A stretch of 64,000 nucleotides of DNA. Origin: Phoronis australis. Taxonomy: Eukaryota; Animalia; Phoronida. The stretch lies in assembly GCA_002633005.1 (NCBI GenBank), contig NMRA01000474.1, positions 275,409 through 339,408 of the forward strand, given 5' to 3'. The translations under genes and the position numbers were made by a program. Of this stretch, positions 12,358-36,600 are shown one piece after another. Position 1 is the stretch's first letter. Every line of letters begins with the position of its first letter. Below the pieces are notes generated by a model. It had not been told where the DNA came from and ran no database searches. It worked only from the letters and a program-made list of their open reading frames with translations.

Positions 12358-12696
12358 TCAACGTGGCCTTCCATTAGGGAAGATTTCGGTGCACAATTGG
12401 CTATCACTGACGTTGATGTCGTCGTATATGGCCTCCATGCGGATTCCTTGTTCAACGGAACGAACGGCAATTTCATCAAAAGGCACAGTGTGGATGGGTG
12501 GCACATTCGGAAAAATAAATGTTTGCATTACGGCCACGCTGGCTTCATGTTTCTCGTCAGGCACGAAACCGGGACATCCGGAACTACCTTTACCAAAGTT
12601 TGAACTGGTTTTGTAAAGTGCTCGGCGACCATCACCGAACTTCGGGAATACGTCAAACCCAAATCTAGCTTGAGACCATTGCTTTAATTCGTCATG
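12358..12696 (-). CDS. ANK-protease exon 12 (last), catalytic Ser (LYKTSSNFGKGSSGCPGF)
   Basis: tatttcag|CATGAC...; Ser codon at 12580-12582; VEQGIRMEAIYDDI resembles the FAM111 C-terminal IE.G..M.SI..DI; ends TGA at 12360-12358. Confidence 0.9.
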   Translation of the reverse strand, partial: HDELKQWSQARFGFDVFPKFGDGRRALYKTSSNFGKGSSGCPGFVPDEKHEASVAVMQTFIFPNVPPIHTVPFDEIAVRSVEQGIRMEAIYDDINVSDSQLCTEIFPNGRPR

Positions 12697-15600
12697 CTGA
12701 AATAGACAAATGTCAAATATCTCTCCTAGATAATGAAGGAAAATTCTCTGAAAATCAATAAGACAATCAGAGGAAGCAATAGGTAGAAACAAAGACACTA
12801 CCTTTGCTATGAACACCAAATCCTCTAGACTTGACATAAAGCTGAAGCCATGTATGACTGATTGTCAAAATGCAGAGCTAATCTTCAATTTGCGAAACAT
12901 TATCTGTGTCTTTGTGACCCAGGGTTGCTCTATTGAAATTAGTTCAAGCTGAAACTGCAGGTATGAAAGGGATTGAAATTATAAAACAAACTATTGTTCT
13001 GTGTAAATTGAGAGTCTGGTGAGGAATTCAATTGTTGATGGCATATCTTGGTCGCAATAGGCCTACCGTTCTGCGAAAGTCTCTTGGCTCCATTTGCACA
13101 ACACTGCAGCTGACATCAGCAACTTTGTTTTTCCCGTCAGGGTGACCAGCAAAGTGAAGTTGTGTTTCTTTGTTAAGCTTCTTAAACCTAGTAAGAGGAG
13201 GTGGTAGCGAATCCAACTTCTTGCAGCCGCTTACTGAGAGAGGAAGATCTGCTTGTAGGTCCAATTTTAAAACGGCCATGTCCAGATCATCGTTAGAGTA
13301 CACTAGTGACCCCACACAGCTGCCAGCGGCTGGCCCAAGTCCCAGCAACGATGGTTTGTCGTAATAAAAGAGCACTGCACTGTTTCTGACTGCAACGAAT
13401 AAGGTGACACGTGTACTTAAGTACTTTGTAACATGTAATGCTAACATTAACTAACTTGTGAAACATTTGAAAGTAATTTTGGTTTCAGATAACAAGTTGA
13501 GTGGTTTTAAAAGTTAATTTTGAATGTTTGCTATTTTGGCGATTGATTATGGGACACTTCTTCAAAGTTCACAACGACGTCGTGTGCCAATAAACAACAA
13601 AGACGATTTTAGGAGGGGGGGGGGGGCAGGGGNNNNNNNNNNNNNNNNNNNNNNNNNNNNNNNNNNNNNNNNNNNNNNNNNNNNNNNNNNNNNNNNNNNN
13701 NNNNNNNNNNNNNNNNNNNNNNNNNNNNNNNNNNNNNNNNNNNNNNNNNNNNNNNNNNNNNNNNNNNNNNNNNNNNNNNNNNNNNNNNNNNNNNNNNNNN
13801 NNNNNNNNNNNNNNNNNNNNNNNNNNNNNNNNNNNNNNNNNNNNNNNNNNNNNNNNNNNNNNNNNNNNNNNNNNNNNNNNNNNNNNNNNNNNNNNNNNNN
13901 NNNNNNNNNNNNNNNNNNNNNNNNNNNNNNNNNNNNNNNNNNNNNNNNNNNNNNNNNNNNNNNNNNNNNNNNNNNNNNNNNNNNNNNNNNNNNNNNNNNN
14001 NNNNNNNNNNNNNNNNNNNNNNNNNNNNNNNNNNNNNNNNNNNNNNNNNNNNNNNNNNNNNNNNNNNNNNNNNNNNNNNNNNNNNNNNNNNNNNNNNNNN
14101 NNNNNNNNNNNNNNNNNNNNNNNNNNNNNNNNNNNNNNNNNNNNNNNNNNNNNNNNNNNNNNNNNNNNNNNNNNNNNNNNNNNNNNNNNNNNNNNNNNNN
14201 NNNNNNNNNNNNNNNNNNNNNNNNNNNNNNNNNNNNNNNNNNNNNNNNNNNNNNNNNNNNNNNNNNNNNNNNNNNNNNNNNNNNNNNNNNNNNNNNNNNN
14301 NNNNNNNNNNGGGGGGAAAGAAACTGGCCAATAGTGACGCAATATTTCATGGTGACGAAAGCCGACGCAGAGATAGCACCACAGCCTCATCAACAGAAAA
14401 AACATAGAATGCCAATCCGCCATAATTGTCTAAACTTCACATATATTAAGCAAAACAACATACCAAAGCGACTATTTAAACCTGGAAGATATATTTTTCA
14501 CCAAACAGTGTTTAACAGAAAGTGCGGGATTAGTGTTTTGGTGCAGGTTTCCTGTCCATTCCCGGGGTCCCTGGTTTAAATGCCAGAGTTCGAGTTTTTT
14601 CGGGTTGTATAGCCGTTTTGAAGGCACCTGTTTAATACCGAGTTACTGTCTTGACGGAACATCATGTTATTGTTATTAAATGAAATAAGACGGTCTCTAT
14701 CACGGCCATACATATGAAAATAACCCGCAGTGACAAGTAATATCCACGAGCCTGATTTGAGGCAATCACGAAGTGTCAGTTATTCTAGACCAGCCTTAGA
14801 TGGGATCAATTTCGTAAATGTTAAAGGTGACAAAAAGTTGTTTGTTACAGAAATAGCGAGTTTGTTGCGACGTTAAGGAACAGACGATTTCACCTTTTGT
14901 CTTGAAAATATAATGACTGAGTAGGGTGTTCTTGTTTCATATCAAAAACAATAAAACATTTATTGATAATTTGAAGAACATGCAAAGTTTTTCAGAAACA
15001 GTAACAGCATGTTCAGGGAAAGCATTTAAACTTTCTTTGGGAATTTATCCGCGTTTTAGTCACGTCAAGCAGGTAATGTATTAAAGGTAGTGAGTTCGTA
15101 AAGTTTGCTTCTGCTCTTACGAAATTCCCGGCATTTTCGTACTATATCAAGCACGTGTTTAACTTAAACTAGGTTCCTAGACTTAAAATAGTAGTAGGTT
15201 TGACAAAGCGTTATTCAACCAACAGTTCACCAATAATGGTGCACGTGACACTTACGATCATCGCCCAGTTGTTCAGCAACGTGCTTATTGGTCATGACGT
15301 AGTCAGGGCCAACACGGAAACCTGAACCTGTGCCGGTTTGTCCAACAATCAGAGCTACTGATGAAAAGGCTGTTGACAAAGATGTGAGGAAATGCGCCGA
15401 CATCGTCTCTTTGTTCCAATCAAACGCCAGACCGAAACTACACTGGGTTGGCTCTTTTCTGGGACTTTGTACAGGAAAGTAGTCTGAAAGAAAAGAATTG
15501 TCAAATACCCTTTTCCAGTATCATCACTGACCTCTTCAGTTACACCAAAGTGATGTGCATGTCTCCGTTATATTGTGTCACAGGTGTAAATGTTAAAACC

Positions 15601-18600
15601 ATCGAAACTTGTATTTAAGCTCAGGGAAATGTGCTACATCAAAGTCTTGCCTTCCCAAGTGGGCTTGCTTTACCATGTGAGACAAAAGCGAGTCAGGAAG
15701 TGGCGAGGAGATGATGTATTTGAAACCAATTTAAAAACGCTTTGCCATAAACAGACATCCAAAATCTTGACGAATAAACTGTAAAAAATACGTGGTGATC
15801 AAGTTGGATCCTGTTTTAGTGGCAGGGAACTGTACTTTGAATAGTGTAATTTAGCCTGTTTTTTGTTCGCCGACGACAATTTTACAGTGGAGCAGCCACG
15901 ATTTAGAAACCACTGTGGCCTAGATTTAAAAACAAATGCGGTTCTTTTGCAATGCTGGGAAACTCCGGGTGTATTGAGATTGACTGGGAATGTGTAAGAT
16001 GCAAATAAATCGACGTGGCGGTAGTTCTTACAGATTACATTGAGCTCCATTTATCTAACCTGTTGTAAGTAATTAGGTGATTGAGAACAGAGTGAGAAAT
16101 AATATAATGCATTAGACAAAACGAGCTTTACATGTATTTGGCATGTCGTTGGCGGATTTATTTATCAAACCTGAACTACATGAAGGCATTGGTAAGCACC
16201 GAGTCAGAGCACGTTACGTGCATCTCATAAGTATTGTTTGACCAATGGGCATTCTGCATAGGCAGATTTAGAGGGGGAAAGGGGCAGGGGGCCCGCCCCC
16301 TTGGCTGACGCAGAAAAAATAAAACAGCAAGAGCGTGACGAAATATTGAGTTCATTAAATAACGTGGTAATTAACCTGGGGCTGAAACAACATTTTGATG
16401 TGTTGAGGGTTCCCCGTTTTTTAGTCCCCCAATTTGATTCTTAGCAGAACCTCCGCTTACCCGAAAGTTTGAGCCCACCCACCCCTGGTTGCGCGCATGC
16501 AATCGTGCTTTGCGCGGTTGCCCCAGACAACATGTTGATATACCAGATCCGCCACTGTTCTGATATGTACAATGAAGCTACATTCACTACAACACCATGT
16601 ATCTGAACTCGATAGACACTCAGTCTTATACAGCTGAATGTTTAGACCTAGAACAGTGAGCAATACCATATTAGAATGCAGCCGGTGAACAAGCAAAATT
16701 GATTCATGTAGCAGTGTTTACCAGTGACACAATATCCCGCTAGATGTAAGTGGTATCACATATTGTATCAACTTATTCAATACACACTAACTGAATGTAT
16801 GAAATCAACATCTCATTTAGAGCATTAGGTGAATAGTACCGGCAAAACTATGTGTATGAATCACACCGATAACAATTCATAAATAATCTTACATTCCTAC
16901 GTGGCCAATAAAAGTCAAATTTGAAGATGATTGAAATTTTCTCTCAGTTAATGATTGTTCTGCTACTAAAGGAAAATGTTATCGCAAAAAACGTAGTTCC
17001 AAAATAAAAGCGGTATGTTATCACCATAAAGTTAGGTTCTACTATTGCAGGTCAAGAGTTTAAAGCCAGTATTTACGATTATACTTCATATACCTGATGG
17101 TCTGACGTCAACACCCAGAATTCCCAGTTCATTTTTGTCTCCTTGGTGTGCTTGTATATTTATATCTACATCCCCTTTGGGCACTGTTGCCCCGGAGGAC
17201 TCGAAGTAATAAGCAAGATATCTTCCAAGGCTAAAGTGCGGGTCAGCACTGGACCTGTTTTTGGCTTCAGCACCCTCAGCAGAACTCGCACGTTGGTTTT
17301 CCTGTCTTTGCTTCATTTGAATCTATACCCAAGTCAAAAACGACACAACCGCATTAACTAATTTATTTTATAACTGATGATGCTACTCTCTGCTCTGAAC
17401 ATCTATGTAATTCCTGAGTTAGCAATGGATAAAATGTAAATAAAAAACATGGTATTATTAAAAAATTATTAACAAACATGGTCACTTGACGAGTATCGTT
17501 TTCATCAGGTAAATAATGATTATTTAAAGAGTATTCAATGGTTAACAACACACATCCGTTTGAACCTAATTCTCAAGACAAAACTGACAAGTTATACTGT
17601 ACCTCAAGGAACCCCTTTAAGGTTTTAATATTTTCGGCGGCGGTCTTGTCAAAAAACACGCTACATTCTCTTCCACAAACATCATAAGCTGTTTCGCCTT
17701 CCTGAAAATTAACAAAATAGAGGTAAAGAATTAAAAAGTACATATAATTTTTCAGAAAACACGCAAAATGAGCATTTTTTTGATCTCGTGGTTCTTGGAT
17801 TCCGGCATGTTTCCGTCTGTATTTGTTCAGGGTCAAAATTTTAACCAAGTTTCAACGTGTGCCTCTTCTTTTCTCAAGAGTTACAGTTAATCTGGGTATA
17901 GGTCTTGACTTGGTGTGGTCGAATAGTGACACTCAGTGTCAGTTGTTTTACACCTGCGTCTGCGTTGCCTCTGTAAATGTTGGAAGAAGTGTCTCATTTC
18001 AAAGAACATTATACACGTGTTAGATGGGGTTCCAGTCGGGAGGTGTACTCCATAGGATTAGCAAACTGAGGTATGAACTTGTTAGATGGGGTTCCAGTAG
18101 AGAGGTGTACTCCATGGGATTAGCAAACTGAGGTATGAACGTGTTAGATGGGGTTCCAGTCGGGAGGTGTACTCCATAGGATTAGCAAACTGAGGTATGA
18201 ACTTGCTGACAACTTGTCCAGGACATCTTTCACTGTAGTCTACTGAGATGACATCAAAAGGCAGCATAAACTGACTGGGGTGCGGATGTCACCATGGCGA
18301 CCACGTGGTAAAAATGCTTTTATTTTTTGTTCAAACATTGACTTTTACCAATATTTGAACTCTCGCGTACATGTATACACGTAGATACTGTGCATTCCTG
18401 AACCTCCGTGGAAAACGGTTGGAAGTTACTTTAGACTTCTGTTGTTTACTGTCAGCTTGCATAATAACAACCTCCACCCAGCAGTAATGACCAACATCGT
18501 CCGATACAAATACATTTTTCATGGAAATTGTTAGGTACGCATCCAAAGTGTCTTCATGCTTCAAGGAAGGCTATTTACCGTGTTAAAGATGCGTGTTTGG

Positions 18601-21600
18601 GTAAAGGAAAAGGTATATAATCCTTAGCTATGGGGATTTAAACAGGTAATCAAATTTTCTAATAATTTATAACGCCCTTTTCCTTTATGGTCAGTACTTG
18701 GTTAACTAAATATTCATCACCTAATCAAATGACAACACCTAATGAATTACTGAATGTTGCACACAAAGCATCGTTAAAAGTACATTTCAACCCTAACAGA
18801 CGTTAATGTAGAAAAGCGGACATGTTGAATATTAGATAACATTTTTTAAAATAAAGGAAATGGTTAAGTACCGAAAGGATTTGATGATTCTATTACGTCA
18901 AACATTTGAGACCATAAATTGTAACGCGATTAAATATTTTTATTACAAAACATTTCCCATTGGCGATTGTTCCTGGTTTTACGCGTTTACTAAGTTTTAA
19001 GACTTCCTCATTCTCAGCAGAAAACATTATTTTCAAACTTGCTGAAGAATGATGCTAGGTCCAAGATCCGATAATCTCAAAATTTGAAACCAACGAATTG
19101 CACTACTCACTACATCGTTGAAATGTTAACAAACTTGTCAAAATTATTACAATTTGGTTTATTTCCAGTTCAAATACAAAAACTAATGTTGAAAATCATG
19201 CCCCTTTCATCTTTTCTGGAGATATCAAAGTTTTTGTCCAAACATTTACTTTTTGGGGTGTTTTGATTTCCGTGGAATCGGTTGTCCAGCCGACTTTTTT
19301 TACCAAAACGATAGTTGCATCAGGCGTTTGCTTCCTTGAGTCGTAGTAGTACCCGAAATAAGATGCTCTCATGAGAGGTGAACTTAATAAATTATCGTCA
19401 GATTAAAATGTTTAAGAAATTTGGACCTTTGTAATTATGTCATCAGGTATCTCGTCTAAATCCACGTCACGCATAGTGGTCTTTAAGTTTAACAAACTTT
19501 CTCATTCCAATCTACGACATAACGCGCTTTTAACCAAGTCCACCTATGAAGTCTTCGCAACATTTTTTTCCAAAAATAAATTACATTATTTTTTGAATCG
19601 GTGTTTTGTGTAAAACTATATCGATAGTCTTGTCATTGGGGATTTGTCTAATTCATATAATACATATATAGTATCTTTTCGAGTCCTATCAAGGCTAAAC
19701 GTGGTTTTCACAGCCTCAGTCTTGGTTGTTTGCTGCAGCATGACTTGAGATTTATACAGGTTGGATAGATCGCAGATATATTTATATACATGTATTTCAA
19801 AGTGATCAACTATTGCTGTCGTTGTCGCTGTAGTTTCTCAAATGCGTATCCACATTTTCCATGAGGTGCAACGGTTCCTTTGTGTTTTGTCGTTTCCTAT
19901 AAATTGTCCACGTTTTAGCTTACCTAGCAAACAAAATCAGAGCTCAAGGGTCTTTTCGTTATCTATTAATTATAGTTTCCCGCTTCAAAGCCATGTCAGA
20001 AACCCTATTGTTAAGGCTAAATGTCCGTCGCTTTACATTTATCAAATGTGTAAGAACAGATTTATGCACACGTTTCCGTGGTCCTGTCAAACGTTGTTAA
20101 AAGAAGTTGCCTATATATAGAAGATCCACTCACCAGAGTAATGCATTTTAAAAGGCTCCACAGTCTCACAAACACTGTACCATAGCTACAGTGTAACATA
20201 CATGTGCAACGGATCTCGTTGTATACATCCGGTCAAAGCTAAAGGCGTCTCTCCAATGGCAGAAATGTATTTTCGGAACGATGTTAGAATTGTTCTTTGG
20301 ACAGCAAAAAAATGGAAACAGATTAGGGATACTTGCACTCTGTAGTTGTAGTTCATTTCCAATATCTCAGATGAATTGATAAATAATCGAACAAAATATC
20401 TATTAACTACTGCTCACAAAACTGAACAATATGGTCCAAATGCCGAGTTCTTTCAATCTCCAGTTTTGTCGTTTTCTGATAAGGTTCCACATCACTTATT
20501 TAGGTTGTCATTATGCTGTTTCATAAAGGAGATGTTTGGACTGGTACGTTTGACATGGGTAATTTCTGATAACGTGGCCACCCACGCACATTAAGCGAAG
20601 ACCAATTAAAATTTGCCAAACAGGCACTACGAAAAAATAAGAACGATGAGAAAATGTGTTAGCTTTTGAACAAACTGATGAATTACATTCTCAAGCTCAA
20701 GTTTTTGCAACTAACGGATAAAACTGATTGACACAACACGAAGATGTGATTTGAACGAAAATAAAATATGGGGTGATATAGAAAGCGTGTTGTGTTTCGG
20801 ACAACTGAATACACCAACAGTCAGAAACAAATCAGATCGCATATTTATACACGTTTTATAAGAATCTGAAACAGACCCTGGATTTAGAGTGGATCAGAAA
20901 CGATCACTGTGCGCAAATTAGTCACACAGCGCTCTGCTTTTTCTGGGGTCTAACTTATGCAGACTTCTGGAACAGCGAAAACCGCACTTGTCTTTTCAAA
21001 AGGCTGGACTTTGACTAACTCACGCCCAACATTACTCCACCACAGAATATATCAAACAAAACATGGCAGGAACTTATTACACAGTAGTGCAATTGCATTA
21101 CAAACAAACCAAAAAATTACACGACTTTGAAATTTGGTTTTTAAAACAGTCGCTTTTTAAAGCAACCCTGACTAAAAAGTACTTGTAGGAAAATCAAAAT
21201 GTGTGCCTGTGTTGGGCGCCTTCCTCCGTGGTTGGTCTGTTTTTAGTTTGTGTACCGATTGTACGATCAGACGAGCAGCCTTGGTTTCGCTGCGTGTTCT
21301 GGGAAGGTACTTGCATTGAAGAAGTGACTCTATGTAACTCCAGTAAAGAGGTAGATCAGTTTTAATGAGATATTTATTATGAGTGAACAATTCCTCGAAA
21401 TCAATATTCATTTAAAACACATTTATTGCAGCATTAACTAAACTTGGAGTACAACACTCTTGAGATACCTTGTTTACGGCAGTCACGTCGCAGCTGCCAT
21501 TATGGACCAGCAGTTCCACGACTGCTGCCTGTCCTGTCTGGGAAGCTAGATGTACGGGTGTGTTTCCATCCTACAGTAAACGAACAAATATGATAGAATG

Positions 21601-24600
21601 CTGGTCAGCATCATACATAGCAAAGTGGGTGCGTCAACAGAGAGTCACGCTTAACACCTTTCAGAACTTCGCCTTCAGTTGCATACTTACTGTATGAAGT
21701 GGGTGACTCAACAGAGCACGACTACAACTGACATTTAAACTCAGACAAAAATGAGCGCAATTTCCTAAATGCTGATCTGTTGTAGTCACGCGACTGAAAA
21801 GATGATTTTAAATATCACAATTTGATGTTATATATTACAACAGAGCCACGATCATTTAGTGAGTGCTATGGTAATGCAAGTAAAGAACAAGTGCTCAATG
21901 TACAACTCCAGGTGAAGTGAAAACTGTTTCTAATAACATAATGTCACGAGCACGTCACGTCACGTGCGCGTCACTTCACGTGCCGTGAATTCAACGTTTA
22001 CAAACAAAATTACAATTTGTGATTATTTAATTAAAACACCCAATAATTCAACCTCGTCACGTATTGTGTGTTCATCAACCTGTGTGTCGTTAATTACCTG
22101 AGTACGGACATCCACTGTAGCGTTGTGTTCCACAAGACACTTCACTATCTGTGTATAACCACACCCTGCTGCACAGTGCAGCGGTGTCCGGCCCACCTAT
22201 GTAATATATAATGGAGATGTGTGAACGAACGATCAACGTTTAGAGCAAATTAACAAACACGGGGGAAAGTGAACTTGTAAGGTGACATAAATGAAACATT
22301 ACTGACCTCTCTAAGACGCAACAATACGTGTAATGATTTCAACAGGGAAATGTTGAGTTTAAGAACAAAACAACAGAGCGTGTTCAGTGTTCCGTCTCGT
22401 TACACGCTGATAACACACAGCAAGTAATTGTGCGCTGTAAAGTGTTGGACAATCAAAATAACGTAGAAAATATATCTGAAACTAAATGAGGCGATCCAGA
22501 TCGTCTGAAGGAAATTATTGTTTGACGAAATGTAGAATATATATAGGTAAATAAAACAACAATAATGAATCAACTGAAATGTTCGGATGCAGCTTTGACA
22601 GTTCTCTGTTGGAAAGCAGACGACATTTATTTTGACATTGTTTAAAGACATAAAATTGTGAAAAATATCAACAAAATTTGTTCTTCAATAGTTTTAATCA
22701 TCTCTTGTGTAAACAACTAATTCAACCAAACAACCTGTGTGTCATTAATTACCTGAGTACGGACATCCACTGTAGCGTTGTGTTCCACAAGACACTTCAC
22801 TGTCTGTGTATGACCACACCGTGCTGCCCAGTGCAGCGGTGTCCAGCCCCTCTATGTAATATATAATGGAGATGTGTGAATGGACGATCAACGTTTAGAG
22901 CAAACTAACATACACGGGGGAAAGTGAACTTGTAAGGTGACATAAATGACACATTACTGACCTCTCTAAGACGCTACAATACTTGTAATGATTTCAACAG
23001 GGAAATGTTGAGTTTAAGAGCAAAACAACAGAGCCTGTTCTGTGTTCCCTGTCTCGTTACAGGCCGGTAACACACAGCAAGTAATTGTGCGCTGTAAAGT
23101 GTTGGACAATCAAAATAACGTAGAAAATAAATCTGAAACTAAATGAGGCGATCCAGATCGACTGAAGAAAACTATTGTTTGACGAAATGTAGAATATATA
23201 TAGGTAAATAAAACAACAATAATGGATCAACTGAAATGTTCAGGTGCAGCTTTGGCAGTTCTCTGTTGGAAAGCAGACGATATTTATTTTGACATTGTTT
23301 AAAGACATAAAATTGTGAAAAATATCAACAAAATTTGTTCTTCAATAGTTTTAATCATCTCTTGTGTAAACAACTAGTTCAACTAAACAACCTGTGTGTC
23401 ATTAATTACCTGATCACGGATATCCACTGTAGCGTTGTGTTCCACAAGACACTTCACTATCTGTGTATGACCACTCCATGCTGCACTGTGCAGCGGTGTG
23501 AAGCCCCACACCTATGTAATATATAATGGAGACGTGTGAATGGACGATCAACGTTTAGAGCAAACTAACATACACGGGGCAAAGTAAACTTGTAAGGTGA
23601 CATAAATGAAACATTACTGACCCCTCTAAGACGCTACAATACTTGTAATGATCACTCAAGTTTTACAGGTGATTTTAAAACCTTGAAGTAAGAACAGAAC
23701 ATGGTGTAGAAGACAACTGCCAGAAATTACTGAGCGCCGCCATAACTTCACAGTGACCCCTCCATGTTGTGTTCATACACCGGTTTAATGGCTTCCTGTT
23801 CAATATAAAGTTGTAATGTTGAATGGACGCTTACCATTAAGAATAGAAAAATATCAACGTTAAGTCGCCAAATATATTGTTGACACAATTCAAACCTCAC
23901 TGTTTCTTAAGATGCATGTACCGGGTACAGATTGAAAATACATGTCGAAATCTTGAGAAATAAAAAGTGTATATACACACAACATGTTTAGTTAAACTTC
24001 AGATAGTTTACAGCTTTGTAACAAAGATATCACTGTCTTAATTATAAAATCGTCTCAAGTAGTTTCTATTACCCCGTCTTGCTTGTTGACGATAGCGCCT
24101 GCTTCACACAAAACACGCGCCACCTCTGTATGTCCCAGCCCTGCTGCACTGTGTAGTGTTGTCCAGCCCTGCAGAAACAATGAACAAGTTATAGCAAACT
24201 TCACAATCATTAACTTCACCGTGAATCTTAATTACTCATCATGGAAACGTTGAAATAACACATTTGCACACAAAATTACTAAATCTACTCTCTGCTTACC
24301 ACATAATATATCAGTTGTCGTTGGAATGGATCATCAATTTTAGAGAACAAGGTTACGTCGCTCATGTAGAACGTTTGTTAGTTTCAGTAATAATCCTCAG
24401 ATTAAAGACATGACATGTTCTTTAAAAATATGGACACTTTTATAAAAGTCCGACTTACGACTGGTTGTAGCTAAGACAAGCTATCACTGTTATTGTCATT
24501 AACGTGACCTTGATATTTAAACTTAAAAATTTATCATTTTAAGAGATCAATTTTTCGAGAGATCAAGGCAAAAGTATTGTTAGTGTATATGAAAACTGCA

Positions 24601-27600
24601 ATTATATGGGTAAAGCTTACATGGTCGTCTGGTTTTCTTTAATTAGTAGGTCTACCCCAAACCAATCCCTGCTGGAGGCATGAATTGAAAAACATGATCA
24701 AACTAATTTGTAAAGTCCAGTTTCACTTTTTTCCTGAGGTCCAAAATAATTTCTAACAAATTAAAGTCAGGAACAAACAGAAATAGAAGGAAGAGAGAAA
24801 ATCAATATAGGGTAAATTCGCCATTGGCATAGGATATTATCAAAACGCAACTGAAGTATGAAGTTTTTCATGGAAAAAAATGCAGGGCAATCCTTGGTAA
24901 AGGGTCTGTTACTGGTCAGGAACTAAACACATTTCAACTTATAAATGGCATCCAACAAAATCCAAGCAGGCAAAACGTTCAGGAAAAGAATAAAGAGTTC
25001 TCTACAAATTAAACGCACGTTGAAACACATTTCACCAAAACCATTCTTCTTGTCAAGATTGCTGTTCAGAAATCCAATCAATCATTTGTCTCCCACAAAT
25101 TGTTCTGCTATTCTTGAGACGACGTGACAGCGGTCTGGACAGGCGAAGCGTTGCTTTTAAAAAGAGCGCTTTTCCAGACAGTTTTCGCGTGTACACGCGA
25201 TAAATTGATACATTAGTCAGTTCTTGAATATATTTAAAGGGGCATTTAATAATCGCAAGGAACTAATTAAAGAGAGCGTGACTAACCAAATAAAAGGTGT
25301 TGCAATTTGTTTTTTTTAACTCTCGTTTGACCCTTTTACAATCAGACGTTCAAAATGGTGTTTCGGCGTTTATACAACTTTCTATATTGCAACTAAAAAT
25401 TTGAGATTTCTGCTGATTTACTTTATTCAACATTTCGCTTCAGAGTGGTGCGTAAAGAGGGAAATGTCAAAAATATATGGTCTCAGAGAATATGCAACGC
25501 TACAATCACGGCTGATTTGATGACAAGCAAACAAGGAATACAAAAATTCAACAACTTGAACAAAAGCCGCAATTTCAGGTTGCGTCTCAAGTAGCCGAAT
25601 GCCATTTGGATCCGACGGCCACTTGGACAAAATATAGAAAGAAATACGGATAGATAATGTGTACAATTGGAAAATATTGCGCGGTAGAACAATAGCAGTC
25701 ACCACAAAAAATACAACATGTTGCACTATCAAACAATTGAATACTAGAAAAATATCTGAATAAATCTTTAAAATTCCATTCTTTATATAAAATCACCCAG
25801 TAGTACAATGCGTCACGTGTACACCAGTCCATCTATTAATAGAACAAAATCTGGAAATCAATAATTAGACGTACACTGGCACGTCAAAACTGTACTTCAT
25901 TTCACTAAAATTTAAAAACTCGATACACGTTTGAGCAATAAAAATGTGGCCTGATTAAAATCAAGCAAGCGTCATTGCTATCATTTTAATTGTTTTGAGA
26001 AATATTTATTAAGCTCGCCGTATATTAGTGACGTTTAGAACAGAGCATCGAGATCAAATAACAAAATTAGGCCTACATGTAGGTCGCTTTCGCTTACATA
26101 ACAAGTGCAATTCCCAGACACGACTGTTCTTTGGTGACCTGCTCTAAGGTAATATTCACTCGTAGTGATTAATTTCATAATCCACTTTCATCAACTGAAT
26201 GCCCGTTAATCTTTTAAATACGGCAGCGCAACCATGACAAGAATGTTTCTATTTTAAAAATAAAGTTACATCGTTACCGTTAACTAACTGCTACTATTGA
26301 ATTCAGTCTCCACACGTCAGAATGATGCAATAATACTACTCTACACACCCAAATTCAATTGAAAGCTCAGGTTTTGACCTCTCGTGTCAAGTCAAACTGT
26401 GCGACCTGAAATTTCAAGCATAATGCGTGCTGAGTTTGTGTCTCTACACTTCTACCGACTGATACCTTGGAAATATGAAAAAACTCATGTGGGTCCGGCC
26501 ATTAGTTAGTTGTTGCCAAAGCAAGTTCGAAAGAACACTAACACATGCTGTGAACAGACATGTATCGCGTGAACATGAAATAGTGCAGATTCGATCTTTA
26601 AATCGTTTCGTCGACTAGTATTTTTGACTACTTTTGAAAATTTTCGGATGCGCCTAAGAAAGTTCTGCACCCCGGAAGAACAATTTAAAAAACGGTACAA
26701 AACAGCAATGTTTCCAATAATTCTGAAACGATCAACGTAACTAGCGTTGTGGTGAAAAACATATCAATTTTTCTTGTAAAATGTCCAAATTATCGAATTA
26801 AAATATCCCAGGTCCTATCGCATTTTTAAAACTGCTTGGTCAAGTTATTTACGCGCACGGTCGTGGTCCCACCAGAGAATCATTATTCGGAATATTCGCG
26901 TACAGCAAGCGATTTTTTTTGCTCCCCGGGTACATTGTAGTCAGCCGACTACAAATACGTCACTGATCTTTACTGGTGTAAAACTCGCTTGGAAGGAATA
27001 CTGTTCCGAATGAAACATCAGCCAAAGGAAATTAGAATTGCGGGTGTCTAAAAAGCTGTAAGTATTAACGATATCCAGGCATTTACGCTTTGCTGGTGTG
27101 CGACGCACAAAAATATAGTATTACAAAAGTTCTTGCTACTGCAATCAATTCTCAGTTCGGCAATCATTCACAACAACGGCAACACTCAAATTTGCGCCAA
27201 ATTCCATATCTTTGAAATTTTTCGGAACAAGCGCGCACTGCTCTACTAATCGCAACCCATAACATTTGAAAAACTTCAATAAAACGCCAACAGCTCTGGC
27301 AAGCGCCCAACCGTTGTTTGACTCACTAAAATTGGTTTTCAAAACTGCATAATGCGAAGTAACCCTAGCAACATGCATGCTGGGGTCATGTGTCGTTTTG
27401 AGTCTACCTATTTTGTGGAATAATTATGTGACACGTACAGTGTATTTCTCGTGCTCAGGAAACAAATCTAATTACCCGATAATGGAAACCCGCACGGAAT
27501 GGTTACTATTTGGAAGCTAGTTATGATATGAAAAACTAATGTCTGAAAACGTAAACAGTATAAGCCACATAAATGTTGTAGTGATATTTGAACTGAATTG

Positions 27601-30600
27601 GTCCTGATGATCGATCCGTTGGTTTGACAATTGTTGTCATTTTAAGAAATTGAACCAAAAGTAATACAAATTCTGTCCCAAATCGATAACGTTAAATGCA
27701 CAATACGTCATTCGGCTAGGAAAAATTTAAGCGGTTTTGTTTATCGACAGGATTTTTCAATCGTGTGAGTCGCAAAATTTGAAGAGCAAACAAATTGAAG
27801 AAGCTTGCACTCATAGTTACAGGGTATATCTTTGCTTTTTAACGACTTTGATGACAGTCATACCGTAGATCAATAACAAAAGAGTCCTGGATATTTTTTC
27901 AATGAATATTTTGTTCAAGTTTACGGTCAATACTTGCTTACCGGAAAGCACGTGGCTGTTTTAGAGCACGGATTCAATTTTCACGTAGGCTTGCGACAAG
28001 TACTTAGAACTTGCAAAAGGATGTGTCATAGCATGGCAGATGTATAAAGCCCTTACGGGAACGTCAGGCAGCACAGATTTGATTTGCATTGCAACATGCG
28101 CATCCAGGGCTTTTCAATAGCTGTAGAGAAAAACAATTTCATAAAACATTAAGAATTCAATCTCGCGGCCTAAAATTCGGGAATACCTACATCAGAGGAA
28201 AAGGCAATATTTAAATATTTTCTCCATTGGCTAGAATCAATTTGGCGCATACAATTTGTGGGTAATTTTTGCGAGCTGGAATTCGTGTAGGGAGCTAGAA
28301 ATTTGGTTTCAAAGGTAGCAAAATGCAATTGTAAGGCGAGTTATCATTATCTTTGCTTCTACCATGACCAAAATGTTACGTACTGTCTAAGAATTTGAAC
28401 AATTGCTTGGATAAAAAAAATTGAACAAATGATACACCAAAAACAAGCAAAAACAAGCAAAAACAATGCTTTTACTCATGCCCTAAAGCAAATAACCCAG
28501 AATATTAGACTTTGACCTAATACTAGAGTATCAAAACATAGTTTTTATTCCTTTACTGTGAAGCATCTACACACCGTGTATGGTTGTGGTATCTGTGAAT
28601 GAGATCTAACATGAATTTACCCCACAAGACTTGATCACTGTGGATTAACAAAAGTTTTCCTTATCCAAGTACGTTTTAGTTAGTTTTTTAAATAAATGCG
28701 ATAATGGTTATGTTCAATCCACCCATATCATATACAAAACTGACGCCACCTTTCTAAGCAGAATCAGGTGAAGAACGGACACTGTGAAAAAAGACACACC
28801 AACTTTTGTATTAACAAAACATACAACCATAACACTACTGGGTACCGGTAGCAGCATTTTAGACCAACAAGCAGTTGCTTTATCAATACTGCAAATAATA
28901 TCATATCACCTTGAGCACTGAATTTTAAAAGTGCACTAATTCGCACTATAACGTAACTTACGGTCCGTAGGCGCTACGTTTAAATGCCAAAAGGCGGTTG
29001 GCTGCGCTTACGTGCGCTAACACCCAACTACAGCACTAAATTAGACACAGGGTGCCTTGTCTGCATCTGTGGTCAATTGGAAAAAAATCAGAAAAAAACA
29101 TGTAGGATACAAAGCTTTGAAATTTCTTACAGTAATTCAAATCACCTTCTAATAGTGTTTCCAAAGTTCACAACATAAAAATGAATCATTTTTCACAGTC
29201 CGATTTGTACCAGTAGTCCAAGCGTATCTTGTTGAATAAATAATACATTGTATTATTATCTCATATAAAATGAGGCATGTATTTTCCCCAATAAAACTCG
29301 TTCAGCAACAACACCTGAAAAACTTAGGTCTATTAATTTAAGAGAGAACTGACAATTATCAACTTATCACGATACTCTTTTTAGGAATAACTCAAGATAA
29401 AGTTTGACTGATTCTCTGAGTCCCTTGTTTTGTTAGCTTACAGTGCTCCGTTAACAAAAGTTCCAATACATTGGAATCCATTGTATGCAAGATTTCACAT
29501 TTCCAAAACATCTCCTACTTCCTACACAATTATTTCCCGGTCCATTTTTTTCGAACTTCATGTGATTTTGGAAGGACAGTTGCCGATGGGGTTGTCTACG
29601 CACCTGTTGAACCCCCTTGGCTACAGTAATGACCCTTAGTAGGCTCATCTCATACTAGTCCTTGTTCGACGCACAACTAACATTGGTCAGCAAGATCGCA
29701 CAAATTAATGAAGCCTAGTAAGCTATATCAAGCTTTCACTGAACGCTATACAGCACATTATGCTCCACGAACTCAGTTTGCGTACGCACACGTTGAAACA
29801 AATTTTACCTAAAATAACATCTTTTTCTGTTCAAGATCTCTATCCAGTCAATGATGTCGACACAAATGCATACCCTAAATTTTTAATGTACGCAGTTCAG
29901 TGAATTGAAACGGAATGACCAATCGCAATTTCAAAAAAGCAGCGCTTTGCTGCCAGGCATCGATACATTGGCATTCATCGATCACGAAGAAATTCTAATA
30001 ATTATTTGGGTGCACAGTTACGATAGGGCCTTTTTAAAAGTATTTTCTAATATGCAGGACCTAAGTTTCAGACTGAAGCTGAAAATAATTATTCATCTGA
30101 AGTACCGTAATATGAATTACATGCATGTATAGTGTACTACGAATTTCACAAAAATGCTAGAAAATCCCAGCAATTAAAAATGACGTCATTGTGAGCACCA
30201 GATTCAGGATGAGCGAATCTAAGGGACCTCGGTCACGCAAGCGCAGTGGCCTTGAAGAAAGATTTGTTGACAGATTTTTTATAAATTACCTTCAGGTTTA
30301 TCTCAGGATATGTTCAAATTCTGTCTGATATATTTTTTATCAGTTAGACGGAAATCCCGAAAAATTTTCCAAACGTCTTAGCGGACTGTGCCGTTACACC
30401 AAAAGGAATGCCGATAAGTTTCTTATTTTACATTTATTTGACGGTCACGTTTGCAAGTGTCTATGGTTCATACACACTGCTCGAAATTTCAACTATATAA
30501 GCACGATGTTATTACTTTTTCCAAGCGTAATATTTGCACAGTTGTTATTTGAAACGCGCCGGTGAAACGTATATTTGCCTCTTATTATTTTAACGAACAA

Positions 30601-33600
30601 TTCCCCAAGTGGTGCGCGTTAAAACCAGCATTCAATATATTAACGAGATAAATTAACCCTTTCATCAAATCAGTTGGTCTATATCATGTCATGTACTTGA
30701 AACTGGTTAATTTTGGATGGGTTTTTCAATATCTTCAAAATTGGTTGCATTCTGATTTTTTCGTATTTGCTCGACCTATGTTAATATGCTTGTGCAATGA
30801 TATTATATCGTGGTTGCAGAATGGTTTGAGACAACTGTTGTGTCATTGCTTTACCAGAGTGATAATAAAATCTTACTTAAATGACAGACAGAGCATCTAC
30901 TATGCTGAAGAATGGGATACCGTAGCAGGAGGTCGCGTCACCTAGGGGGAACTCTTATAACGAAACTGCATTTTAGGAATGAACCAGTTGTGCATGAAAG
31001 AAATTGGAAATTAATACGCCCAGATCTTGAATGCAGCAAACCGGAACACTATTATCTACGACAACAAAAGTGATTGCACCGACTATGTAACGAATAGAAT
31101 AAGTAAAATAACATAAAAGATGTGCCTCGATCCGCCGAACACTCAGTTATTCAACGAAATTCCACTAACAGGAACCTATCCTACTATTTGAAACTTGGAT
31201 TATGGTACCCAATTAGCAAACAATTGAGAATCACTGCTGTGCTGTAACACTTCAAAATTCTTTCTTTAAATTGGGCATTGAATGAAATGTACAATTGCAT
31301 CACTTTCTATAAATTGCAATAAATTACCAACTTCGCCTTGACTTGATGAATGAGAAGAGTACCGTCTCTCACCTGTACGAAACTGTTCACGGGATACGAT
31401 AATAATATGGAAAATGGGTATAATGTTAGATAATCAATCCGCGTTTGACACAGTTTCACAAGACCCCTTCTTGTACAAAGTTTTCTCTTATCCAATATCG
31501 GACACTCTGCACACACTCCGCACTTTATACTTGTAAATTAACTCTATCCATCCAATCGGGTAGTAGGACTAGACAGTGTGTTTTCAAAACCCTCACTCCC
31601 CGTCTTTGTTTACGTAGGGGTATCGAAAGCTGATGTCCTATTTCTACTCTTCATCAATCATGACAGACATGAGCTCCAAAACCATCCATGACATAATCAA
31701 TGGTAAAACGTCTGATACAGCCGAATTTTATACAAATCTCAAAAACATCCCAAAAGCCTTTCTTTCCAACTACAGTTGAAACTTGGTTCCACTCAGGGCT
31801 CGTAATAAGCACATGGAAGCTTCAAGGCTGAGATAAAGTGTTGATCTTACATTTTCTAGATGCCTCCATTTCAAACTAACACAATCTTTATCTGAATCCG
31901 CATGGTGAAATTATTCCCCAAAACATTTGTAAAGAAATCTAGTCATGATAGTTGATGATGAAATGTCATTTGAACCACAGTGTCAAATCCGTGTGCAAAA
32001 AAATCAAATTCTAATCAACCTACTGAAATTCGTTCATGCAAGTTTCAAATCGTTTGGTACCTACAAACGATTTGAACATTTTGACTATGGTGAGATAATC
32101 CACCAAGTCGTGTAGATAGTGCGAGACCTTTGCTTGAGCTACACAAAGTATCATAAAAAGCTTGCAATAACCAATGCTGGTGTCATGAAAGGGTCTAACA
32201 CAGTAAGTGGTCCAAAATGTCATTGTGTTGAAAGGTATTAGCAGCTCAAGTTCTTAACAAAGTAAAGAATGTATTACGAAATACAAAAGTCAAAAACATC
32301 ACTCGATCTAGGTACAGTTCAAGAACGCTAGTACATGCTATGCCCTTCGCGAGATTACGCCGTGTATTTTAAACAAGACCATGTGAATTTGGACAGTTTT
32401 TCCAACCCGCAAAACAGCTACACTGAGAACTCTACTAGGGTTTCTCTTGTCGCACATTTTTCTTATTTCCACCATCTTACAGTCGAGCAACTAGTAAATC
32501 CACAATTACCAAGGCATAGATGCAGGTCACATCCTCTCATAAAAATGATATGCCGTAATTAAAATTTCATTTTCACAAATGCTTTTGCGAAAAGAATAAA
32601 ATTATTCTTCCTACAGTCGTATACCGCCGTACAATAACAAAGGAAATCTGTCAACAGATTTAGGTCAAGATTATTGCTAAACTCTGAAAAATTCAGACAC
32701 ACTTTTCAAAATATGTCTTCCCGGTGCGCCTGCGGATCTGTCCAAATTGGTCTGTTTCTAATGCTTTCGTAGATCGTTTGCGTGATCCTTGTTGCGGATC
32801 CTGGAGACGGTCGACGATATAACAGATAAAATTAATAGTATTCCACGGCAGATTGGTAAATACATCTTGTTAGTAACTGATTCTCATGACTAGCCCAATG
32901 GCGTCTATTAAGTGCTACTTAGTCAATTTCTCTATAGTATGTAACCTGTCTTATAATTGCTGTTCGTAGGACTCGGTCATGATTTCATTGTATTTTTCTC
33001 ACCGACATACGTGTGCTGTTAAGGCAAGTTAAGAAAAAACGTCTGTTTTATATCTAAACTTCCGTAGCTATACATGTACTTGTATGTGAACATTTTGTTA
33101 TTACTGTTTTGTATTGTTACCACGATTTTGACATGTCGCTTTGGTTAACAGTTTACAGTGTTCATACATGTATATACTATTCAACATAAAATTAGGAAGG
33201 CAATGCCAATCGTGATGAAGTTCTTAAGACAATGGATGTGTAGAATTGTTTTTAACAAGGTGCATTTCAAGTCAATGATGATCAGACAAGTGTTCATGTG
33301 TAAATACTCACCGACCGACCCAGCGCTTGGTCCACATCCCAACCACGGTTTACATACTCCAGTAGAGTAGAACAGTCACCTTTTTTGGCGGCTGTTCTAA
33401 CCTGAAAATAATAACAAATAAATTTTAAATCGAATGGTGTACATTCATTACCATTACGAACTCAATTTTACAAAAAAGTGCTCCTTAGATGATATGAACA
33501 TTGAGGGACTAGGGTCGGGGTTGTTCCTGGGTCTTGATAATGCAGACCATATGAAATACTCTTCGCAAATTTTGGCTCTTGTTCATATTAAAGCTTCCTA

Positions 33601-36600
33601 ATAACCACACATTTATACCAACTTTATGAACGAGAAACACCACAAGTGTCGTCCTCTTCCTTCTGACCCGTTGTTGATTGTGTCCACGTTGACCTTTTTT
33701 CCATTTTGACCTACATCGTACCGTGACCATTTTACCATCAATATCATTTCAACCTCTTATTATGTTTAAGTTCAGTTGTCCAAAACGTGCTGCAATCTGC
33801 AGTAATCTGCCCCCTCAAACATTGTTTGGATAAGGTATGAGTATCATTTAGGGTGTATAGTCTGGAGTTAATAATTATTTGTTCATCAACGTAGTGTCTC
33901 CCAGTGTTTGCTCATTGAGGCATCGGCTAGGATGTATGTATTGGGATTTTCGTTGCGTCATCTCAAGAACGTGCAATAGCGAAGGAAGACATGTCGGATG
34001 GAAGGACAAAGGTGATGTTGTCTCAAACTTCTCCGCATTTAGTGTTCGCTAAGATACTCATTTCTTATTACCCAATTATTGCTCTGATCTGGAATTTCGC
34101 TGTTTGACGTTTACCTCCCATTTCGATTCGTACGTTTTGTGAATGACTGTAGGCACATAATAGTCGATAACTTCCCATATAACGTAAAATTCGATATAAA
34201 AGCAGTGAGATGTAACTTGGTGTACCTTTTGTACCATAGGTTGTCTGCACTTCATTTTTGTACATTTTTGCAAACTTGCTTTTAACGTTACTCCATTCAA
34301 GGTGATTTTTAGTCTATCGAATATTACACATTTATTTACTGTGGTTCCTGTACTTTTGTTTGAATTCTTCCATACTATTTCCGTTATTAACTATCATTGT
34401 TAATAAGTAACATTTACCAACCTGGCCCTCGCCTTTTTACTGAGAACTAAATTCAGATAACACCACTATTATTTCTGAATCAAATTTAAAAAATCGTTGA
34501 TCAATGCTGATGTAAAAAAATAAGTTGTCTTTGTTGGGCACATCAAGATTAATTACATTCCCTCAGAATATATTTTCCAATGAAGACGACTTCACTAGCT
34601 GTAACATTTACGGCACATTCTCACTTCTCCGAGTTTATTCATAGTCTGAATGAGTATCATGCAAACAATACATACAGCATTGGTTCCTGGGAGACGTGAA
34701 TTTATATTGTGATAATGAATAATTGAACTCAATCTTGCACCTTGTAGCATGACTATAACTTTATCTTAACACTCTTCTTCAACATACGTACACCACTCAG
34801 ATGATGAACAGACATACAGTTGGCACACCATCAGGTTCTACCCTTTGTTTCGAGAGTCAATCATAGGACTTATCGTGTTATCTCGGTAAGTTTTGACAAG
34901 TTACCTCAAGAGGGCGCTCCAGGTATCATTTGACTAGATTACATCCAAAGTTGAAATCCAGCGCTATAAATGAGATCTATTTAACAATGGTTATACAAAT
35001 TCTTTGTTGATAACCAAACAAAGAAAAGGGCAAAGTGAGCGTGTTAGTCGGTACCTGAAGGTCACGTGGTTCAAGCGAAAGCCAAGTGTTCGGTCAATGG
35101 CATGACAAGATTTTTTTACCAAAATTAAGACAGAAAAAATACATATTTGCTGAAGAAAAGTACAATAATAAAGTTCCAATTTAAGAATTTTAGCGGAGCG
35201 TTCGGTTCAGGTTGTTTGTGTGATAACGCCGTGTTGTAAACTACAAGATTGTCTTTTGTACATCGTTCCTAGAACGAGCGTATCATAAAATCAAGAATGA
35301 GACATTTCTTTACTGAAGTGAACGAGCAAGAATACGAAAAGAGCGCAACCTTTTCTTTGAAAAAAGCAGTACTTGTTGGTGGTTGCGAGAATTCACTTCA
35401 CGTGTCGCTCAGGTGATATTTTCCTAACCACCAGCGGCTAAACCACAATCAAGGTCCATATTCGAGAAGTGACTGTGTTACGGTATAAAATAATTTTGTC
35501 TGGTCACTTACCAAATGTCAACTGAATCTCATATGCAAAGAGTTATTTAGTTGTGCAAATTGAAAAAATAATCATCAAAATTGGACAATGTTTGAGAAAT
35601 GCATGCTTGCTTTTGTCTATGAATTCCATGCATTTTCAGCGTTACGAGTGGCCATTTTAAAAATTGCAATTTTCAACTGTCAGCAGTAGAAAGGAAATTT
35701 ATTTTAATAAGCAAGTAATTGTTTTGACATGACTGGGAATGACTTAAGTCAATTTCGAAATCACTTGGACGAAGTTGCGCTAAATCGTTGAGAAATGATG
35801 GAGTTCATCATAAAACAGGCACTGGTTACGAAAATTGTGATATCGGCGATTCTAACCCCCACCTACTGTAAAGAGGGTTAAAAACTAAAGTTCACATTCT
35901 GTAATACAAAGAACTGTAGAATAAGTTAGCCAAGGCAACACAGCAAATTATTCAATATCTAAACAAACCAAAAGTTTGGATATTTACTGGGTTCTGCTAT
36001 GGTGAAAATGGGCCAAAAAGGCTAACAAAGTGTAGTGTACGTACCCCCATGTAGAATTCAATAACACAAATGGTCATTGCAAATGAAATTATTGCCTTTT
36101 AAATAACAACATGGTGGTTATTATCACCAAAGAAAAAATAATTGGCCATACAACATTATGTTACCATGTGACGCAGAAACAGTGATGTAGTGTATGTACC
36201 CCGTTTTGTAGCGTATGTACCCCCATGTTTACAAATGTCATGAAATTAAAATATCACTTGGAAAGTAAGCAACATTGGTCATGGACAGTTTCCTTCCTTA
36301 AACATGTTAGGTTAAAAGGGTGTTTATTGCAAATACATTTGTTTTGAGTGAAATATTAGCATTTCTGTAGTGTACATAACCCCATATTTCAATTTGTGCC
36401 CATTTTCAAAGTATGGCAAATATGGGTATTAATGCTGTGCTTTTTATTTTTTCTCTTTGAATTGATTAAGTAAATCAACTAACTCTCAGTAGATTCTTAG
36501 TACATAGTCATAAACCTGACATGTCATTGAAAGGTAGTGTACGTACCCCTGTGTAGCGTACGTAACCCGGTGTGAACAAATACCGTGAAACAAAACTATT

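Follow-up and report, generated by a model that had tools for sequence, protein, structure and literature searches.

In animals, PRDM9 carries tandem near-identical repeats that change fast at their contact residues and vary in number. DARPin libraries, said to go back to Binz and co-workers in 2003, were reportedly randomised at repeat positions 2, 3, 5, 13, 14 and 33. The subject here is an array of three duplicated ankyrin exons (E4, E5 and E6) in a gene on the minus strand of a 64,000-nucleotide (nt) stretch of Phoronis australis DNA (GenBank assembly GCA_002633005.1, contig NMRA01000474.1, positions 275,409 to 339,408), called the window below and numbered from its first letter. E4 to E6 are read as young tandem phase-0 cassette exons whose predicted binding-face codons were probably driven apart by selection for different targets, with a near-identical framework. 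A probability of about 0.58 is given to this reading.

PRDM9 zinc-finger minisatellite arrays were used as one comparison system (PMC8925151, available in part). For fungal NLR/STAND proteins of Podospora, the available part of Dyrka et al., 2014 (PMC4986451) describes HIC repeats of the ANK, TPR and WD types with repeat-number polymorphism and with concerted evolution as well as positive diversifying selection. The same part sets the HIC criterion at an amino-acid identity of at least 85% over at least 100 residues, and gives such repeats as rare in metazoans (0.8%). For Ectocarpus LRR and TPR genes, exon-per-repeat shuffling and diversifying selection on the repeat domain were reported (2012, PMC3341825, available in part). 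A designed ankyrin library was randomised at positions 2, 3, 5, 10, 13 and 33 as the binding surface, and in ankyrin repeats at large entropy peaks at positions 2, 3, 5, 10 and 13 (both from the accessible part of PMC4308713).

Duplicated ankyrin exons and substitution rates

RNA reads of three stranded runs (X6, X7 and X8, first mate on the plus strand) and contigs of run X5, all with the same species label as the window, were mapped to 14400-34399. The duplication and its exons were placed as follows.

22076-23652, minus strand: tandem duplication, 2.4 copies of a 655-657-bp unit (blastn self-comparison).
23410-23511, minus strand: exon 4 (E4), 102 nt, 34 codons, first duplicated ankyrin exon (Pfam Ank 39.0 bits); RNA joint E4 to E5, 22853->23413, in 7 reads of run X6 and one contig of run X5.
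22753-22851, minus strand: exon 5 (E5), 99 nt, second duplicated ankyrin exon (Pfam Ank 42.4 bits).
22098-22196, minus strand: exon 6 (E6), 99 nt, third duplicated ankyrin exon (Pfam Ank 36.8 bits); RNA joint 22192->22758 in 10 reads of run X8.

All three exons, and the neighbouring exons 3 (X1) and 7 (X2), score above the gathering threshold of Pfam Ank (PF00023, 21.1 bits) and so belong to the ankyrin repeats; the best PDB matches of the ankyrin exons were ankyrin-1/2 and designed ankyrin proteins. Each E exon encodes one repeat that starts at consensus position 3 and runs through position 2 of the repeat after it. All are in phase 0 with AG/GT borders, and in each the exon is preceded by ...ACATAG and followed by GTAATTAA.

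A preliminary description had counted 7 nt differences between E5 and E6 and 11 plus one codon between E4 and E5, all in amino-acid-changing codons. A direct read of the exons and translations returned the same numbers, and the description held in each detail that was checked. E5 and E6 differ in 6 codons (R/V, W/R, W/C, R/G, H/Y, T/I), and E4 and E5 in 8, with one extra codon in E4. Nei-Gojobori counts of nonsynonymous (Nd) and synonymous (Sd) differences were Nd 7, Sd 0 for the first pair and Nd 11, Sd 0 for the second. Identity was 93% in nucleotides and 27/33 (82%) in amino acids for E5/E6, and 89% and 25/33 (76%) for E4/E5. The differences are concentrated in the first 50 nt of the exon; the last 49 nt of E5 and E6 are identical, and the 36 nt coding for VKCLVEHNATVD are the same in all three copies. 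The claim that the scaffold DNA is identical without synonymous change holds for these copies and not beyond them, where six synonymous variants occur in RNA at 5-14%.

The blastn self-match pairs 22076-22992 with 22731-23652 (94.25% over 922 nt), and a third, partial copy of the unit matches at 90.9% over 265 nt. In each unit the exon lies between 141 nt of intron on the acceptor side and 22 nt on the donor side, and a mid-intron of ~395 nt makes up the rest. Outside the exons, E5/E6 units differ by 25 substitutions and one 2-bp indel over 556 aligned sites (4.5%), E4/E5 units at 5/163 sites (3.1%) and E4/E6 units at 11/163 (6.7%); the earlier estimate for the introns was about 4-5%. Identical runs of 95 and 62 nt are present in the unit introns. 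Nothing that matches the mid-intron occurs in the introns on either side of the array.

No further copy of the unit was found within the 64-kb window by blastn self-comparison, no further ankyrin exon on either strand of it with a hidden Markov model (HMM) built from the five ankyrin exons, and no paralogue of the gene's other exons in it by tblastn. Metagenome contigs contained 0 matches to the scaffold pattern, scanned both as a 36-mer with IUPAC codes and as a 23-mer. The 44-residue E5 open reading frame matched 4 generic ankyrin proteins at no more than 52% identity, its sole matches in the protein search.

The binding-face set was fixed a priori from designed ankyrin libraries (positions 2, 3, 5, 13, 14 and 33) and tested against the rate in flanking intron. 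At these positions the nonsynonymous rate was 0.293 per site for E5/E6 against 0.045 in the flank (ratio 6.5, p 0.0038), and 0.330 for E4/E5 against 0.031 (ratio 10.7, p 0.00042). The remaining 26 codons changed at 0.8 (E5/E6) and 2.2 (E4/E5) times the flank rate, which was not significant. Clustering of changed codons in the set had hypergeometric probabilities of 0.058 (E5/E6) and 0.020 (E4/E5), or 0.011 and 0.004 with position 10 added. Over all nonsynonymous sites, the comparison with intron gave p 0.069 for E5/E6 and 0.0019 for E4/E5. With the intron transition share of 0.64, the probability that no change is synonymous was 0.093 with 7 hits; with 11 it was 0.023 and with 18 it was 0.0017. 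Identity of the scaffold DNA is not unusual by itself, an unchanged run of 49 nt at 4.5% divergence having a probability of about 0.1.

Several further signals were seen in and around the unit introns. At 22456-22502 and 23112-23237, equivalent places in two copies of the unit intron, RNA depth on either strand far exceeds that of the exons. The reads have loose ends at each side of these segments, and 22488 G>A and 23220 T>G are fixed in nearly all of them. The segments resemble a piece of some repeated or strongly expressed sequence that lies elsewhere in the genome. Reads of the opposite (plus) strand, with the first mate on the minus strand, join 21872-21906 to 25440 and skip 3533 nt. This joint has non-canonical ends (TC..CT), 8 reads in each of X6 and X7, and fixed differences at 21872, 21889 and 21891; possible sources are antisense transcription, a structural variant and a paralogous locus. 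Between 21000 and 25000, scans with Rfam and for tRNAs gave nothing above chance.

Related repeats in RNA and alternative explanations

The array belongs to a multi-member family, and the gene in the window has three cassettes between ordinary repeats. When reads were mapped at 95% identity, more than half fitted only partly (304/486 in X6, 294/501 in X7, 519/1009 in X8). Joints that go back from one E-like exon to another were found at 22842->22752, 23509->23413 (E4-like, then E4-like) and 22849->22097 (E6-like, then E5-like). Junction inserts fell into >90 classes; all 12 that were decoded keep the 99-nt period and the frame, with 7 different residues at position 3 and TQ, GQ, NE or NK at positions 1-2. 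Since E-like exons are joined to each other in frame, tandem E-like arrays exist in the species. The exon that precedes exon 7 ends in RNK or HNK in RNA, instead of RTQ, and next repeats start with DEWGHTPLHL, DEEGHTPLHL or MEEGHTPLHQ.

Variation was then scored in a pile-up on E5 of reads with at least 80% identity (500 from X6, 438 from X7 and 1037 from X8, plus 48 contigs), with variants counted from 5%. Thirty of the 36 variant rows are nonsynonymous. The six synonymous ones, none more frequent than 0.14, are confined to codons 21-30, and codons 3-17 hold no synonymous variant at 5% or more. No variant was seen in 12 of the 29 scoreable codons. Summed variant frequencies by repeat position were as follows.

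Position 10: 1.03.
Position 13: 1.00.
Position 14: 0.93.
Position 18: 0.47.
Position 5: at least 0.23.
Position 19: 0.20.
All other codons: 0.15 or less.

In the four hypervariable codons, diversity per nonsynonymous site was 9.4 (X6), 14.7 (X7) and 14.2 (X8) times synonymous diversity, ratios that come from unphased reads, are not a formal dN/dS on phased copies, and include position 10 in the set. The corresponding ratio for the remaining codons was 1.0-1.5. Depth in X8 is flat across the exon, and its variability profile is the same as that of X6 and X7.

Diversifying selection on the binding face, as put forward in the preliminary description, gains from the excess at the a-priori positions (6.5 and 10.7 times) and from the near-saturation of positions 10, 13 and 14 in RNA; it is the best reading of these sequences and is not formally proven. 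The receptor in an arms race that the same description proposed is conjectural. The following points weigh against it. Three copies make for weak statistics (p 0.069 for E5/E6 nonsynonymous sites, p 0.22 for the whole exon against intron), and position 10 joined the set after the data had been seen. Recombination is evidently active in the array family, and it can mimic positive selection and inflates codon-model tests. Alleles, paralogues and the repeats of a single array are pooled in the pile-up. Its 80% cut-off favours reads with a conserved framework and variants below 5% are hidden; the first two and last two codons went unscored, although junction inserts cover them. About a third of the first-half depth in X6 and X7 comes from another ankyrin gene (loose end, depth ~280->440 at 22795). 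Classing by single bases is crude, with 3 of the 30 nonsynonymous rows being stops when taken alone and so parts of multi-base codon differences. Reference alleles are rare or absent in RNA at three sites: 22157 in E6 (Tyr->His in 3/4 reads of X6, 9/9 of X7 and 24/24 of X8), 22851 in E5 (Arg->Trp in 7/7, 7/9 and 20/22) and 23421 in E4 (Ile->Val in 27/27, 20/20 and 51/66). The candidate protease domain of the same gene is under the Pfam cut-off on each of its exons (16.3 and 12.9 against 27.6 bits).

The neighbouring ordinary repeats also carry variants. At 24092 in exon 3, A>T (Ile->Asn) restores a consensus-like residue in 19/19, 15/15 and 51/65 reads of X6, X7 and X8, and at 21499 in exon 7 a synonymous A>G is present in 11/14, 6/10 and 12/14.

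The main rival, unlikely in our estimate, is a recombination mosaic, in which tracts of gene conversion or unequal crossing-over imported old family differences with no local positive selection since the duplication, and in which variability across the family may be ancient and simply tolerated. The other orders of E-like repeats in RNA (22849->22097, 23509->23413) and the >90 insert classes fit such a mosaic, as does the gathering of differences in the first 50 nt of the exon; the ~395-nt mid-intron, unmatched in the flanking introns, makes it probable that a local single exon was not the origin of the unit. Imported tracts would, however, carry adjacent silent differences, of which codons 3-17 have none at 5% or more. 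With diversity at hypervariable codons ~10 times the synonymous value across the family, selection or targeted mutation is still needed at some level.

Less likely still, and improbable overall, is drift of young duplicates under relaxed constraint, with surface positions the least constrained and the absence of synonymous changes partly luck. The probabilities of seeing no synonymous change (0.093 and 0.023) and the p of 0.069 for E5/E6 leave room for it, as does the entropy profile of ankyrin repeats in general, highest at positions 2, 3, 5, 10 and 13 in the accessible part of PMC4308713. The neutral rate is a ceiling for drift, whereas the a-priori positions are at 6.5 and 10.7 times the flank and the hypervariable codons of the pile-up at 9-15 times synonymous diversity. 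Since the predicted binding-face codons changed faster than neutral, relaxed constraint alone is insufficient.

An assembly artefact, by which alleles or paralogues were wrongly placed in tandem as three exons, is very improbable. In its favour, the reference base is nearly absent from RNA at 22157 (0-1 of 4-24 reads) and 22851 (0-2 of 7-22), and at 23421 it is absent in X6 and X7 and present in 15/66 reads of X8; DNA runs contain 0.31-0.34 of the sampled words. Against this, the array is free of N runs for 8 kb around (those of the window being at 13633-14310 and 43307-43725), the unit ends cleanly at 22076 and 23652 with unique sequence beyond, and splice junctions that join E-like to E-like exons in frame occur in four runs. 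Such junctions presuppose tandem E-like exons at some place in this species, which makes mis-assembled haplotypes unlikely. Mutually exclusive or cassette alternative exons, one per transcript with the differences as isoforms, are scarcely credible: phase 0, equal length and identical splice-site contexts would suit them, as would an exon 7 joint placed on E5 and not E6 (21572->22758), but that placement is ambiguous with the last 49 nt shared by E5 and E6, reads join E4-like to E5-like (22853->23413) and E5-like to E6-like exons (22192->22758), and many joints go back with a 99-nt period.

Gene model and C-terminal domain

The gene is transcribed and spliced, as RNA reads of the same species show. 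Its remaining exons were placed as follows.

39757-39813, minus strand: exon 1, 57 nt, ATG start, MASNK...ELEK, opening the N-cap ankyrin repeat; loose RNA end at 33403 placed at 39759, with a GT donor and open frame.
33312-33401, minus strand: exon 2, 90 nt, second half of the N-cap repeat; joint 24167->33311 in 18 X8 reads, AG/GT borders.
24073-24168, minus strand: exon 3 (X1), 96 nt, ordinary ankyrin repeat outside the duplication (Pfam Ank 28.3 bits); RNA joint.
21469-21570, minus strand: exon 7 (X2), 102 nt, ordinary ankyrin repeat (Pfam Ank 35.5 bits); joined in RNA to 17700 and also to an E-like exon.
17603-17701, minus strand: exon 8, 99 nt, degenerate C-cap repeat (EGETAYDV...) with no Pfam match; joints 17700->21468 and 17322->17603.
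17094-17322, minus strand: exon 9, 229 nt, linker with no recognised domain (best Pfam match 14.8 bits, E 0.027; cut-off 27); RNA joints.
15256-15483, minus strand: exon 10, 228 nt, opening the likely protease domain, GTGSGF...TNKHV (candidate catalytic His); joint 15483->17094.
13067-13389, minus strand: exon 11, 323 nt, DLDMAVLKL (candidate catalytic Asp); loose end at 15256 placed at 13360-13389.
12358-12696, minus strand: last exon, 336 nt plus stop, GKGSSGCPGF (candidate catalytic Ser); placed by AG and frame, no RNA joint to its acceptor being among the rows listed.

Introns 15484-17093, 17323-17602 and 17702-21468 and the 9.1-kb intron between exons 3 and 2 were defined by RNA. Joined together, the 12 exons give a single intact open reading frame of 620 codons, and all internal borders are GT-AG. 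The ankyrin exons are 96-102 nt long and all in phase 0. The product consists of an N-cap ankyrin repeat, five full repeats (X1, E4, E5, E6, X2), a degenerate C-cap, a linker of ~100 residues and a C-terminal domain.

The C-terminal domain is probably a trypsin-like protease, with catalytic residues proposed from motifs. TNKHV at 389, DMAVLK at 437 and GSSGCP at 545 in the spliced model have the order and spacing of the His-Asp-Ser triad of chymotrypsin-fold serine peptidases, the class of Pfam Trypsin_2 and Trypsin (PF00089). Scanned as single exons against Pfam Trypsin_2 (PF13365, cut-off 27.6 bits), exon 10 matched profile positions 1-20 (16.3 bits, E 0.016) and exon 11, colinear with it, positions 41-96 (12.9 bits, E 0.19). 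The last exon had no Pfam match, no PDB match (phmmer) and no match among longer proteins. Atlas feature neighbours, which serve as leads only, were Trypsin, Trypsin_2 and serine protease clusters for exon 11 (0.91) and the last exon (0.92-0.94).

A Pfam scan of 129 minus-strand open reading frames of at least 55 residues in 1-47916 found no NACHT/NB-ARC or other domain besides Ank. The 620-residue model has no room for NACHT/NB-ARC and is therefore not assigned to the NLR/STAND proteins. No hydrophobic signal-like stretch was found at the N-terminus of the model. Because of the triad motifs, the lack of NACHT and this N-terminus, the gene product is likely a cytosolic fusion of ankyrin repeats with a trypsin-like protease and not a classical receptor.

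Some weaker signals touch the same exons and introns. The first N run (13633-14310, 678 bases) sits in the intron between the His and Asp exons and may hide an extra exon; the reading frame closes without one. The second (43307-43725) has 419 bases. In the His exon, 15257-15481 (minus strand) matched Pfam Ntox25 (bacterial toxin 25) below threshold (E 5.7e-4, 20.2 bits, cut-off 25); the match overlaps the stretch directly before the GSGF motif and is probably chance or a distant peptidase-like resemblance. Among 1.84 billion representatives the Asp exon had a single weak match, P0005 (2267 residues, E 1.3e-5), which was matched in 6 stretches, the best covering query residues 4-32. The 3.8-kb intron that separates exon 7 from exon 8 contains a 62-bp tandem repeat (18018-18205, 3.0 copies, 93% match).

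Taken with diversifying selection on the E exons, the following mechanism is proposed. New copies would arise and be reshuffled by unequal crossing-over or gene conversion between E-like exons, reshuffling being possible because phase-0 exons of 99 nt allow it. Selection would then keep or favour differences at positions 1-3, 5, 10, 13, 14 and 33. The ankyrin domain may bind a variable cytosolic protein target and bring it to, or regulate, the C-terminal protease, which is predicted to be active from the canonical order of its His, Asp and Ser motifs. An immune, non-self or conflict role is a guess by analogy.

Comparison with known systems

An invariant framework with a hypervariable binding face is a recurring natural route to many specificities (fungal NLR repeats, brown-alga LRR/TPR exons, PRDM9, VLRs). 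A literature search that included the available part of an eLife conflict-system survey (PMC8195603) returned no hypervariable ankyrin cassette exons fused to a trypsin-like protease, which is not proof of absence. If confirmed, the locus would be a natural DARPin-like library with targets to seek, and a new effector architecture for recognition-coupled proteolysis. Should the pattern turn out to be due to recombination among old variants, with no selection involved, the locus would remain a clear case of exon-level concerted evolution. It is possible, if doubtful, that the gene is one of a large germline repertoire of 'programmable proteases', whose cassette ankyrin exons with randomised faces are duplicated and shuffled between loci and haplotypes. 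The cytosolic proteases of each individual would then be numerous and directed at different fast-evolving proteins (of pathogens, perhaps, or otherwise non-self), and the repertoire would be an ankyrin-based analogue of lamprey VLRs and the HIC-repeat NLRs of fungi, the protease effector being built in.

Unlike the product of the window gene, PRDM9 has zinc fingers that bind DNA, encoded by an array in one exon, and it functions in meiotic recombination. Closer are the fungal HIC repeats, which like E4 to E6 are near-identical and in tandem and are hypervariable at a few positions of the concave face (inner helix and beta-hairpin), a face that is predicted here. At 82% and 76% identity, however, the window repeats are under the 85% criterion. 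They occupy one exon each, with ~560-bp introns between, whereas fungal repeats lie within one exon, and the partner is likely a trypsin-like protease, with no NACHT/NB-ARC found. On the point of repeat-number polymorphism, RNA has E-like exons in other orders and joined to themselves, with alleles and paralogues pooled.

The designed ankyrin libraries (ANK-N5C, in the accessible part of PMC4308713, and DARPins) resemble the array in their fixed framework and in variation at positions 2, 3, 5, 10, 13 (14) and 33, and their varied positions form a continuous binding surface. The array differs from them in being natural, in the moderate variation of positions 18 and 19, in the Gly, Pro and Cys at variable positions and in selection that is inferred.

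Compared with the Ectocarpus genes, the repeats are ankyrin and not LRR/TPR, the partner is a putative protease and not a GTPase or NB-ARC, and the HMM scan found no inactivated or antisense exon copies in the introns of the window. As in Ectocarpus, each repeat has one phase-0 exon of constant length, and exon duplication and shuffling probably underlie the variability; this match is based on the 96-102-nt phase-0 exons, the 657-bp tandem unit and the 99-nt period of 12/12 decoded junctions.

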